64,000 nt of DNA from Escherichia coli (GTDB lineage: Bacteria; Pseudomonadota; Gammaproteobacteria; Enterobacterales; Enterobacteriaceae). Location of the stretch: NCBI RefSeq assembly GCF_003334255.1, contig NZ_QOWU01000011.1. The stretch is one strand, 5' to 3'. Both the position numbers and the translations under genes were made by a program. This document shows positions 5,918 to 59,679 of the stretch, piece by piece. How positions within the stretch are numbered: position 1 is the stretch's first letter; each line of letters starts with the position of its first letter. A model generated the notes under the pieces. The model was not told the DNA's origin and searched no databases. It worked only from the letters and a program-made list of their open reading frames with translations.

Positions 5918-7069
5918 TTACCAGGCGGTATGGTAAAGCTCTACAATATCCTCAAGCGTTGCTTCACGCGGGTTGCCACCGGTACAAACATCATCCAGTG
6001 CCGCCTGCGCCAGTGCCGGAATGTCTTCCTTGCGTACACCAACATCACGCAAATGTGGCGGAATACCGACATCACGGTTGAGAGCAAACACCGCTTCAAC
6101 AGCGGCATTACGCGCCTCTTCCAGGCTCATACCTTCCACTTTCACGCCCATAACGCGCGCGATATCGCGGTACTTCTCACCGGTAAAGTCAGCGTTATAA
6201 CGCATGACATGCGGTAACAGGATGGCGTTCGCAACACCGTGTGGAGTGTTATAAAACGCGCCCAGTGGATGCGCCATACCATGCACCAACCCTAACCCAA
6301 CATTCGAGAAGCCCATACCCGCAACATACTGCCCGAGCGCCATTTCTTCTCCGGCATCCTTATCACCAGCAACCGATCCTCGCAGCGCCCCAGCAATGAT
6401 TTCAATCGCTTTAATGTGCAGTGCATCGGTTAGCGCCCACGCGCCACGGGTAATATACCCCTCAATAGCATGAGTGAGCGCATCGACACCCGTCGCAGCT
6501 TTCAGCGCTGGAGGCATACCATCCATCATGTCAGCGTCAATAAACGCCACCTGCGGGATATCATGCGGATCAACGCAAACAAACTTGCGCCGTTTCTCTT
6601 CGTCAGTGATCACGTAGTTAATGGTCACTTCTGCCGCAGTACCTGCTGTGGTAGGAATTGCCAGAATCGGTACACTGGGTTTATTGGTCGGGGAAAGCCC
6701 TTCCAGGCTACGCACATCGGCAAACTCCGGGTTGTTGCTGATAATGCCAATCGCTTTACAAGTATCCTGTGGAGAACCACCACCAATAGCGATCAGGTAA
6801 TCCGCGCCGCTATTCTGGAATACACCGAGCCCTTCTTTGACGACAGTAATTGTTGGGTTGGGCACTACGCCGTCGTAAATCGCCCATGCCAGCCCTGCAG
6901 CATCCATCTTATCGGTCACTTTCGCCACCACGCCGCATTGCACCAGCGTTTTATCGGTGACGATCAGCGCCTTCTGATAACCACGGCGTTTCACCTCATC
7001 GGTTAAAGCCCCAACAGCACCCCGACCAAACCATGCCGTTTCGTTCAGAATCATTCTGTTAGCCATCAT
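5918..7069 (-). CDS. fucO: L-1,2-propanediol oxidoreductase (lactaldehyde reductase), Fe-dependent alcohol dehydrogenase
   Basis: 382/383-aa ORF recognised as FucO. Two adjacent ATGs (7069 or 7066), both behind AAGGAG; start ambiguous by one codon. Confidence 0.9.
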   Translation of the reverse strand: MMANRMILNETAWFGRGAVGALTDEVKRRGYQKALIVTDKTLVQCGVVAKVTDKMDAAGLAWAIYDGVVPNPTITVVKEGLGVFQNSGADYLIAIGGGSPQDTCKAIGIISNNPEFADVRSLEGLSPTNKPSVPILAIPTTAGTAAEVTINYVITDEEKRRKFVCVDPHDIPQVAFIDADMMDGMPPALKAATGVDALTHAIEGYITRGAWALTDALHIKAIEIIAGALRGSVAGDKDAGEEMALGQYVAGMGFSNVGLGLVHGMAHPLGAFYNTPHGVANAILLPHVMRYNADFTGEKYRDIARVMGVKVEGMSLEEARNAAVEAVFALNRDVGIPPHLRDVGVRKEDIPALAQAALDDVCTGGNPREATLEDIVELYHTAW

Positions 7070-7093: not shown

Positions 7094-7741
7094 TTACTCT
7101 TCAATTCGTAACCCATAGGTTTTGAATTTCTCCAGCACTACGGCAATCTCTTCATCGCTCAGCACTGGCACCGGGTCCGTAATCGCCAGGGTCGTCAGGT
7201 AAAGTTGCGCCAGCACTTCAACTTCATGCGCCAGCCATAACGCTTTTTCCAGATTCACCTCACAAGCGATAAGCCCATGATGTTGTAACAAAGTTGCCTT
7301 ACGATTTTTGAGAGCCAGCGCAACATGTTCAGAAAGTTCGCGTGTTCCAAAGGTCGCATAAGGCGCGCAAGGAATAGAATTACCGCCAGCCGCCGCAATC
7401 ATGTAGTGAATAGCGGGGATCGATCGGTTAAGAATGGAAACTGCCGTGCAATGAACGGCATGATTGTGAACAACCGCGTTGGCATCCGGTCTGCTTTGAT
7501 AGGCTGCCATATGGAAACGCCATTCGCTTGAGGGGAGCTTTCCTTCCTCATGTTTACCGTTGCCATCAATAAAGACAATATGCGACTCCGTCAGTTTTTC
7601 ATATGGAATGCCTGTAGGCGTAATCAGCATCCCATCCTGATAACGTACACTGACGTTCCCCGCTGTCCCCTGGTTCAGTCCCAGGCGGGTCATTTCCAGG
7701 CAAGTGTCAATAATCTGACGAGCAAGTTTATTTCGTTCCAT
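7094..7741 (-). CDS. fucA: L-fuculose-1-phosphate aldolase
   Basis: 215-aa ORF recognised as FucA; fucAO operon divergent from fucPIKUR. Confidence 0.95.
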   Translation of the reverse strand: MERNKLARQIIDTCLEMTRLGLNQGTAGNVSVRYQDGMLITPTGIPYEKLTESHIVFIDGNGKHEEGKLPSSEWRFHMAAYQSRPDANAVVHNHAVHCTAVSILNRSIPAIHYMIAAAGGNSIPCAPYATFGTRELSEHVALALKNRKATLLQHHGLIACEVNLEKALWLAHEVEVLAQLYLTTLAITDPVPVLSDEEIAVVLEKFKTYGLRIEE

Positions 7742-7929
7742 TAGCTACCTCTCTCTGATTCAAAACAGGGCAATAATGTTGTTCCTTTCACACTATTGAA
7801 TTAGCCGTTTAATTACCCACCATCTTCTTCCTGATTAACAAGAAAGAAATTCACAAGCTTATATTTTGTGACCTGGTTCAACTAATCACAGTAAATAACT
7901 GCAAGTTCTCTTTTTATAACCCCATTAAA

Positions 7930-8025
7930 AATGACCGCTCTTAAAAATATTTATCAAAACGGTCATTTTTCTATTCCTCCAAGCCCGGAATGACCGTTTT
8001 CGGCACAAACAATTAATACGGTCAT
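7930..8025. promoter_or_regulatory. Two tandem 34-bp inverted-repeat units (AATGACCG-N22-CGGTCATT) in the fucA-fucP divergent control region; candidate FucR operators
   Basis: tgaccg at 7932-7937 pairs with cggtca at 7960-7965; tgaccg at 7991-7996 pairs with cggtca at 8019-8024. Units are 59 bp apart. Confidence 0.4.
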
Positions 8026-8083
8026 CTGATTTGTGTTTTTTATGATTTATTTTCTGAAACGGGCATGAAATTTCGATTATTAA

Positions 8084-8139
8084 AGTGATGGTAGTCACAT
8101 AAAGTCACCTTCTAGCTAATAAGTGTGACCGCCGTCATA
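8084..8139. promoter_or_regulatory. Two CRP-like sites (TGTGA-N6-TCACA pattern) upstream of fucP
   Basis: aGTGAtggtagTCACA at 8084-8099 and TGTGAccgccgTCAtA at 8124-8139, each one mismatch from the core consensus. Confidence 0.4.
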
Positions 8140-8287
8140 TTACAGAGCGTTTTTTATTTGAAAATGAATCCATGAGTTCATTTCAGACAGGCAAATATTC
8201 ACTGATATGAAGCCCGAACTCGCTGGTTTTGCACTTTTGAAAACATAACCGATTACGTGCTTAAGCTTCTGAACCTAAGAGGATGCT

Positions 8288-9604
8288 ATGGGAAACACAT
8301 CAATACAAACGCAGAGTTACCGTGCGGTAGATAAAGATGCAGGGCAAAGCAGAAGTTACATTATTCCATTCGCGCTGCTGTGCTCACTGTTTTTTCTTTG
8401 GGCGGTAGCCAATAACCTTAACGACATTTTATTACCTCAATTCCAGCAGGCTTTTACGCTGACAAATTTCCAGGCTGGCCTGATCCAATCGGCCTTTTAC
8501 TTTGGTTATTTCATTATCCCAATCCCTGCTGGAATATTGATGAAAAAACTCAGTTATAAAGCAGGGATTATTACCGGGTTATTTTTATATGCCTTGGGTG
8601 CTGCATTATTCTGGCCCGCCGCAGAAATAATGAACTACACCTTATTTTTAGTTGGCCTATTTATTATTGCAGCCGGATTAGGTTGTCTGGAAACTGCCGC
8701 AAACCCTTTTGTTACGGTATTAGGGCCGGAAAGTAGTGGTCACTTCCGCTTAAATCTTGCGCAAACATTTAACTCGTTTGGCGCAATTATCGCGGTTGTC
8801 TTTGGGCAAAGTCTTATTTTGTCTAACGTGCCACATCAATCGCAAGACGTTCTCGATAAAATGTCTCCAGAGCAATTGAGTGCGTATAAACACAGCCTGG
8901 TATTATCGGTACAGACACCTTATATGATCATCGTGGCTATCGTGTTACTGGTCGCCCTGCTGATCATGCTGACGAAATTCCCGGCATTGCAGAGTGATAA
9001 TCACAGTGACGCCAAACAAGGATCGTTCTCCGCATCGCTTTCTCGCCTGGCGCGTATTCGCCACTGGCGCTGGGCGGTATTAGCGCAATTCTGCTATGTC
9101 GGCGCACAAACGGCCTGCTGGAGCTATTTGATTCGCTACGCTGTAGAAGAAATTCCAGGTATGACTGCAGGCTTTGCCGCTAACTATTTAACCGGAACCA
9201 TGGTGTGCTTCTTTATTGGTCGTTTCACCGGTACCTGGCTCATCAGTCGCTTCGCACCACACAAAGTCCTGGCCGCCTACGCATTAATCGCTATGGCACT
9301 GTGCCTGATCTCAGCCTTCGCTGGCGGTCATGTGGGCTTAATAGCCCTGACTTTATGCAGCGCCTTTATGTCGATTCAGTACCCAACAATCTTCTCGCTG
9401 GGCATTAAGAATCTCGGCCAGGACACCAAATATGGTTCGTCCTTCATCGTTATGACCATTATTGGCGGCGGTATTGTCACTCCGGTCATGGGTTTTGTCA
9501 GTGACGCGGCGGGCAACATCCCCACTGCTGAACTGATCCCCGCACTCTGCTTCGCGGTCATCTTTATCTTTGCCCGTTTCCGTTCTCAAACGGCAACTAA
9601 CTGA
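8288..9604 (+). CDS. fucP: L-fucose:H+ symporter (MFS)
   Basis: 438-aa membrane ORF recognised as FucP. Confidence 0.95.
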   Translation: MGNTSIQTQSYRAVDKDAGQSRSYIIPFALLCSLFFLWAVANNLNDILLPQFQQAFTLTNFQAGLIQSAFYFGYFIIPIPAGILMKKLSYKAGIITGLFLYALGAALFWPAAEIMNYTLFLVGLFIIAAGLGCLETAANPFVTVLGPESSGHFRLNLAQTFNSFGAIIAVVFGQSLILSNVPHQSQDVLDKMSPEQLSAYKHSLVLSVQTPYMIIVAIVLLVALLIMLTKFPALQSDNHSDAKQGSFSASLSRLARIRHWRWAVLAQFCYVGAQTACWSYLIRYAVEEIPGMTAGFAANYLTGTMVCFFIGRFTGTWLISRFAPHKVLAAYALIAMALCLISAFAGGHVGLIALTLCSAFMSIQYPTIFSLGIKNLGQDTKYGSSFIVMTIIGGGIVTPVMGFVSDAAGNIPTAELIPALCFAVIFIFARFRSQTATN

Positions 9605-12940: not shown

Positions 12941-13363
12941 ATGCTGAAAACAATTTCGCCGTTAATTTCTCCCGAACTATTGAAAGTGCTGGCAGAGATG
13001 GGACATGGAGATGAAATTATTTTTTCCGATGCTCACTTTCCCGCCCATTCGATGGGACCGCAGGTGATCCGCGCTGATGGCCTGTTGGTGAGCGACTTGC
13101 TCCAGGCGATTATCCCGTTATTTGAACTGGACAGTTATGCACCGCCGCTGGTGATGATGGCGGCGGTAGAAGGTGACACTCTCGATCCTGAAGTAGAACG
13201 ACGTTACCGTAATGCGCTTTCACTACAAGCCCCGTGTCCTGACATCATCCGCATCAATCGTTTTGCGTTTTATGAACGGGCGCAAAAAGCCTTTGCGATC
13301 GTTATCACAGGCGAACGAGCGAAGTACGGGAATATTCTTTTAAAAAAAGGGGTAACACCGTAA
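12941..13363 (+). CDS. fucU: L-fucose mutarotase
   Basis: 140-aa ORF recognised as FucU; start 2 nt after fucK stop. Confidence 0.9.
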
Positions 13364-21231: not shown

Positions 21232-21398
21232 TGTTCTCTTCTTCAGGTTAAAAAATAAGGCGCAACGAAGATAACAAACCGCCGCGTTTAATGAAATGAG
21301 CAGCCTCTCCCTGACGCAAATTTTGCACAAAAAATAGGCTTTAGTGATTTGTTTTTGTTCAAAATCATGCCAAATCCGTGATCGGGGTAAAAAAAAGG

Positions 21399-59425: not shown

Positions 59426-59679
59426 CACAACCTCGCACCAATTAACAGTGCAATAGTAAATGATTGTTAATTACAGTTATCTTAATTGTTTAAAAAAAGT
59501 GATTTTTATCACAAAGGAAATATGCCTGAGCAGCAGTCAGAGACATAACTGGCACGTAAGGTTTGCAACCACTAACCCACCAATAGAGGGGTAGATAGGG
59601 CGTTAATCTCCCATACTTAACCTGGTTTATGGTAAATTGCCCTCCATTTTGTTTAATTTGTAGATGATACGTTCAGATA

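Follow-up and report, generated by a model that had tools for sequence, protein, structure and literature searches.

The two CRP-like motifs located upstream of fucP in the Escherichia coli window (the whole 64-kb stretch of DNA analyzed here) are, with high confidence, the known cAMP-CRP operators OCrp1, centered at -80.5, and OCrp0, centered at -40.5, of the sigma-70 fucPIKUR promoter. Both sites are already known, and there is nothing new in the finding itself. The window contains the E. coli fuc regulon, with fucO and fucA on the minus strand and fucPIKUR on the plus strand. Gene names were taken from a RefSeq E. coli record in which the intergenic region is 100% identical, and in that annotation fucR is described as the 'L-fucose operon activator'. 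The spacer between fucA and fucP (7742-8287, 546 bp, 36% G+C) is present in 5,025 of 5,426 complete E. coli genomes. The genes and the two CRP sites are arranged as follows.

5918-7069, minus strand: fucO, named from the RefSeq annotation of the matching E. coli record.
7094-7741, minus strand: fucA, named from the same annotation.
8081-8102 (core 8084-8099), no strand: OCrp1, the upstream CRP site of fucPIKUR, with the 22-mer TAAAGTGATGGTAGTCACATAA and its center at -80.5.
8121-8142 (core 8124-8139), no strand: OCrp0, the promoter-proximal CRP site, with the 22-mer AAGTGTGACCGCCGTCATATTA and its center at -40.5, a Class II position.
8288-9604, plus strand: fucP, encoding the L-fucose:H+ symporter, first gene of the regulated operon, with its ATG at 8288.
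3' of fucP, plus strand: fucI, fucK, fucU and fucR, named from the RefSeq annotation.

A preliminary description of this DNA had reported the 16-mers AGTGATGGTAGTCACA (8084-8099) and TGTGACCGCCGTCATA (8124-8139) as tandem CRP-like sites, each with one mismatch to TGTGA-N6-TCACA, placed about 150-200 bp upstream of the fucP start, and had related them to cAMP-CRP dependence of fucose utilization. As reference for CRP, the two-fold symmetric core TGTGA-N6-TCACA and the 22-bp consensus aaaTGTGAtctagaTCACAttt were used. Sequences and coordinates proved exact, each core does carry a single mismatch, and the two cores lie 204-189 bp (OCrp1) and 164-149 bp (OCrp0) before the ATG, with their centers 40 bp apart. 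The functional part of that description is supported by the RegulonDB table and by the work of Zhang and Saier. In the RegulonDB table reproduced by Shimada 2011 (Table S4), both sequences appear among the entries for fucPIKUR, at -80.5 and -40.5, as sites from which CRP activates; our sites and the RegulonDB/EcoCyc ones are the same in sequence, position and operon, without any difference. Zhang/Saier 2024 and 2025 named the sites OCrp1 and OCrp0, and consider them important for the Crp activation of fucPIK. Moreover, OCrp0 is printed in PMC11894529 as taaTaTGAcggcggTCACActt, which is the exact reverse complement of window positions 8121-8142.

Experimental evidence is available for the region as well. 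Five clones selected by cAMP-CRP in genomic SELEX derived from the fucA/fucP spacer, where a SELEX-chip peak naming AGTGATGGTAGTCACA was also obtained (Shimada 2011), and mutation of OCrp0 or deletion of crp abolished the activity of an IS5 fusion promoter (PMC11894529). This reported mutagenesis of OCrp0 concerns the IS5 fusion promoter, while OCrp1 and the fucP transcription start site (TSS) rest on the curated table and on secondary citations. A literature search combining fucP, CRP and ChIP-exo returned no ChIP support for CRP at fucP, and the text supplements of the Crp ChIP-exo paper, for which cells were probably not grown on fucose, mention neither fucP nor fucA; 'fucPp', searched for in the literature as a promoter name, gave no match.

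The preliminary description had also proposed a position-weight-matrix scan for CRP as a check. To that end, a matrix was built from 61 other CRP cores of RegulonDB, leaving out the fuc sites (Shimada 2011, Table S4 part 1). OCrp1 scored 10.24 bits and OCrp0 9.23 bits, against a training median of 7.82, ranking 9th and 19th, respectively, among the 63,985 positions of the window; these scores are rough, as the source list includes weak and predicted sites and seven cores that looked out of register were dropped.

Conservation of the two sites was then examined in other Enterobacterales. A FucP scan of species-representative genomes yielded 43 full-length loci from other species, thus 44 sequences with that of E. 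coli, covering Escherichia, Salmonella, Citrobacter, Klebsiella, Raoultella, Kluyvera, Enterobacter, Kosakonia, Mangrovibacter, Yokenella, Buttiauxella, Hafnia, Rahnella, Yersinia, Photorhabdus and others. fucA is divergent from fucP in all 43 of the other loci, and both CRP sites are found in all 44 sequences, OCrp1 as [AG]GTGA-N6-TCACA and OCrp0 as TGTGA-N6-TCA[TA][AT]. The half-sites are nearly invariant and the six-base spacers are free to vary, which is the pattern of an operator bound by a dimeric helix-turn-helix protein. The distance between the centers of OCrp1 and OCrp0 is 40 bp in 28 species and 39 bp in 16. The deviations from the consensus are themselves conserved (OCrp1 begins with A or G where the consensus has T, and OCrp0 has TCATA in place of TCACA), which suggests, as far as comparison of sequences can tell, that the strengths of the two sites have been tuned rather than maximized.

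Regarding the start of transcription, the promoter elements deduced for fucP are the following.

8172, plus strand: fucP TSS, derived from the RegulonDB numbering of -40.5 and -80.5; an A on the plus strand and a T on the fucA strand, leaving a 5' UTR of 116 nt.
8160-8165 (-12 to -7), plus strand: inferred -10 hexamer GAAAAT, placed by the RegulonDB numbering and by its conserved spacing from OCrp0.

In the legend of Fig. 7C of PMC11894529, the fucP TSS is a bold 'T' within a fucA-oriented sequence, less than 100 bp from the IS5 site, and an A at 8172 on the plus strand would appear as a T in that orientation. The mapping was checked on the divergent gene: the fucA TSS was published as a 'C' 63 nt before the fucA ATG, and position 7804, to which this corresponds, is indeed a C on the minus strand. 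For CRP action the relevant distance is that to the TSS at 8172, and not the 150-200 bp to the ATG. The transcription start is compatible with Class I/II spacing, a point on which the preliminary description had made its interpretation depend: OCrp0, at -40.5, occupies a Class II position, and OCrp1, at -80.5, would lie one helical-turn series further upstream. With the TSS taken from the curated table, OCrp0 overlaps the -35 position as a Class II site does, and in RegulonDB functional Class II sites range from -40.5 to -42.5 (Shimada 2011 table). Productive upstream CRP positions are -61.5, -71.5, -82.5 and -92.5, and OCrp1, at -80.5, deviates by 1-2 bp from -82.5, the canonical value given in the literature. 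The -35 position itself (8137-8142) reads ATATTA, with no recognizable -35 element, and a consensus scan of 7700-8320 detected neither a sigma-70 promoter nor a terminator. Lack of a consensus sigma-70 promoter fits an activator-dependent promoter, and is not evidence against a promoter at this position.

Comparison of the 44 sequences is in agreement with this architecture. The center of OCrp0 is 28.5 bp from the -10 element without an indel in any of the 44, and a -10-type hexamer (GAAAAT, GAGAAT, TATAAA, AAAAAT or similar) is present at the same ungapped distance in most of them, whereas the distance from OCrp0 to the ATG varies between 85 and 287 bp, so that the length of the 5' UTR differs widely. 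It was also observed that an imperfect palindrome, ATGAGTTCAT, occupies 8172-8181, that is, exactly the fucP TSS, from +1 to +10. Yersinia and Hafnia do not share this palindrome, which is kept in the clade of Escherichia, Salmonella, Citrobacter, Klebsiella and Raoultella and may be an operator or an element of the initial transcript.

The spacer also contains boxes resembling the FucR operator and the CRP sites of the divergent promoter. The published FucR core is CGG-N-CA, which lies within a 15-bp FucR motif, and exact matches to ACGGKCAT are concentrated here, with four of the nine found in the 64-kb window falling in the fucA/fucP spacer. The features concerned are listed below.

7867-7882, no strand: OCrp2, CRP site of the divergent fucAO promoter, at -70.5 from the fucA TSS at 7804, and the reverse complement of the published ttagtTGAaccaggTCACAaaa.
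7959-7966, plus strand: FucR-type box ACGGTCAT, centered at -209.5, recognized by conservation and by an exact motif match.
8018-8025, plus strand: FucR-type box ACGGTCAT, centered at -150.5, recognized by the published core and by conservation.
8059-8066, plus strand: FucR-type box ACGGGCAT, centered at -109.5, matching the published core CGG-N-CA and conserved; likely a FucR operator for fucPIKUR.

Altogether, five FucR-type boxes are found at 7931-8066, three of them oriented towards fucP (at 7959, 8018 and 8059) and two towards fucA (7931-7938, which is OFucR3, and 7990-7997, which is OFucR2), all conserved across genera; in the literature, those oriented towards fucP appear only as 'putative' OR0/OR1 (PMC11894529). 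Between the boxes at 8018-8025 and 8059-8066, a TGTG(G/T)nTTT block is found at 8032-8041, with the TGTG conserved in at least 90% across the 44 sequences, and it is accounted for by none of the published operators that we found for the spacer.

Three other readings of the two motifs were considered. That they are chance matches in an AT-rich spacer, devoid of function, might be argued from the fact that the motif specifies only 10 bases, and from the whole window, where five sites with at most one mismatch were counted against 1.73 expected; five or more were reached in 8 of 100 shuffles, so that this excess is not significant on its own and carries no weight in our argument. Within the spacer, however, two or more one-mismatch sites occurred in only 3 of 20,000 dinucleotide-preserving shuffles (P ~1.5e-4), and the four sites with at most two mismatches (at 7777, 7867, 8084 and 8124) were equaled in none of the 20,000. 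It is thus this local clustering, together with the conservation of both sites in 44 of 44 sequences, in a pattern typical of a protein-binding site, that argues against coincidence. As the sites are also entries of a curated database, genomic SELEX yielded clones of the spacer, and OCrp0 has been validated by mutation, the chance reading is effectively refuted by conservation and published mutagenesis, and its probability is negligible.

Since the spacer is common to two divergent CRP-dependent operons (PMC11011485), the sites could instead serve mainly the fucAO promoter, and OCrp0 does drive transcription towards fucAO in IS5 mutants (PMC11894529). This is nevertheless very unlikely to be their principal role in the native arrangement. 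The 5' truncations PfucAO.V2-V5, which lack OCrp0 and OCrp1, retain full fucAO activity, and the same work describes both sites as dispensable for PfucAO and as activating fucPIK (PMC11011485). Both are located approximately 290-330 bp upstream of the fucA TSS at 7804, and PfucAO makes use of OCrp2 (-70.5), which has been functionally validated (PMC11011485), and of OCrp3 (+19.5). The two promoters are alike in their regulator, their spacer and their co-dependence on FucR, but in PfucAO one CRP site occupies a Class I position and the other is downstream of the start, and both OCrp2 and OCrp3 are weaker matches, with two mismatches each. A further possibility is that OCrp0 serves FucR in addition to CRP, as a composite operator, since the minus strand of 8124-8139, TATGACGGCGGTCACA, contains CGGTCA, which fits the core CGG-N-CA. 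Here the CGG falls in the CRP spacer, which is unconserved, whereas the upstream ACGG(T/G)CAT boxes are conserved in the cross-species alignment. In Salmonella, Klebsiella, Citrobacter and Yersinia, the OCrp0 spacer reads CCACCA, CCGTTA, TTCAGC and the like, so that the CGG is destroyed; the core thus occurs by chance in E. coli and is lost in most other genera. As, in addition, the IS5 fusion promoter carrying OCrp0 has been published not to respond to FucR, a composite OCrp0 is highly improbable.

Two candidate assignments of the motifs were also rejected. CytR-CRP operators, such as those of deoP2 and cdd, have CytR half-sites flanked by two CRP sites in tandem, at about 52-53 bp from each other, and the distance of 39-40 bp between centers found in every species does not agree with such an arrangement. 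Binding of FNR was rejected on both sequence and spacing.

Having retained the identification of the motifs as the CRP operators of fucPIKUR, we then focused on how they may act. With OCrp0 placed over the -35 position and no usable -35 element, the position of the site suggests that CRP bound to it would contact RNA polymerase directly and activate transcription in the Class II manner. Evidence on the remaining elements comes from IS5 insertion, the target of which is the following.

8112-8115, no strand: CTAG, the IS5 target of propanediol-positive mutants, between OCrp1 and OCrp0.

The published coordinates of this target, counted from the fucA ATG, are -374 to -371, 'between OCrp0 and OCrp1' (PMC11894529), and they map to 8112-8115, where the window indeed reads CTAG. 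When IS5 is inserted between the CRP sites, fucPIK is silent (PMC11894529), indicating that OCrp0 alone is insufficient and that a simple Class II picture is incomplete. The fucPIKUR promoter is best described as Class III-like, with two CRP dimers and FucR, the contacts among them being ones that we infer. In such a promoter, the OCrp1 dimer, 40 bp upstream, and the FucR boxes at about -110 and -150 would supply the remaining activation needed, with FucR, activated by fuculose-1-phosphate, acting on the ACGG(T/G)CAT boxes; how the work is shared between OCrp1 and FucR is likewise a proposal. CRP at OCrp1 may contact the alpha-CTD, or may exert its effect by way of FucR or of DNA bending. Such an operon would fire only when glucose is absent, and cAMP is high, and fucose is present. 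Insertion of IS5 at the CTAG would leave OCrp0 with the core promoter but isolate them from the elements further upstream, OCrp1 and the FucR boxes, thereby silencing fucPIK. In the IS5 fusion promoter OCrp0 sits at -61.5 (PMC11894529), and after insertion it would act from this Class I position on the transposase promoter of IS5, which is directed towards fucAO.

A natural insertion in the same spacer was found in E. coli EC25 (NZ_CM169476.1), a human-gut isolate carrying IS1A in the fucP 5' UTR with a 9-bp target duplication. The insertion corresponds to window positions 8221-8229 (+50 to +58), so that the TSS and the two CRP sites all lie upstream of it, and differs from the classical IS5 hotspot.

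The exact spacing of OCrp0 deserves additional consideration. A published Fuc+ suppressor of the IS5 mutant carries one extra T at -146 relative to the ATG, a position that corresponds to 8142 in the window, between OCrp0 and the -10 element. Taken together with the spacing from OCrp0 to the -10 element, which is free of indels in 44 species, the position of this suppressor raises the possibility that the spacing of the native promoter is, by design, one base short. We tentatively propose, as a possibility that we hold to be rather doubtful at present, that the native -40.5, 1 bp short of the canonical -41.5, may have been selected because it keeps the promoter dependent on OCrp1 and FucR, and hence inducible by fucose, and that the suppressor with the additional T restores -41.5. 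Reportedly, the CRP suppressor of Podolny (1999) is K52N, a change in AR3, which is specific to Class II.

The fucP promoter can be compared with other CRP-dependent promoters. As in galP1, a Class II promoter with CRP at -41.5 (RegulonDB lists the galETKM site at this position; Shimada 2011 table), the CRP site of fucP overlaps the -35 region, no usable -35 is found and a -10 element is present. The fucP site differs in being at -40.5, one bp closer to the -10 element, and, while the gal site alone is enough, fucP also needs the upstream OCrp1 and FucR, as shown by IS5 silencing. Promoters of the araBAD/malK-type Class III resemble fucP in that two CRP dimers and a sugar-specific activator, here FucR, integrate their signals at one promoter; the partner in the case of fucP is FucR with its asymmetric ACGG(T/G)CAT boxes.

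Beyond the spacer, the scan of the window returned additional CRP-like sites. TGCGATCGTTATCACA, at 13294-13309, has the second-best CRP matrix score of the whole window (12.14 bits), and is located inside the 3' end of fucU, with the annotated start of fucR (13421) following after approximately 112 bp. Neither the RegulonDB nor the SELEX tables searched contain this site, which, judging from its sequence, might serve CRP binding at an internal promoter of fucR; expression of fucR has been reported to come only partly from PfucPIK (PMC11011485). In addition, three top-scoring sites are SELEX-chip sites of Shimada 2011, namely AGTGATTTTTATCACA at 59498-59513 (kduI/yqeF-yqeG), CGTGACCCAGGTCACA at 43121-43136 (ptsP/ygdT region) and TTTGTTTTTGTTCAAA at 21348-21363 (mltA/metZWV).

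Overall, the two CRP sites of fucPIKUR are curated entries going back decades, and new studies of them appeared in 2024-2025; the finding carries little weight as a discovery. It does illustrate that a first reading made from sequence only can recover true regulatory sites from raw DNA. As a by-product, the comparison across species establishes that the order of FucR boxes, CRP site at -80.5, CRP site at -40.5 and -10 element is fixed from Escherichia to Yersinia and Photorhabdus.
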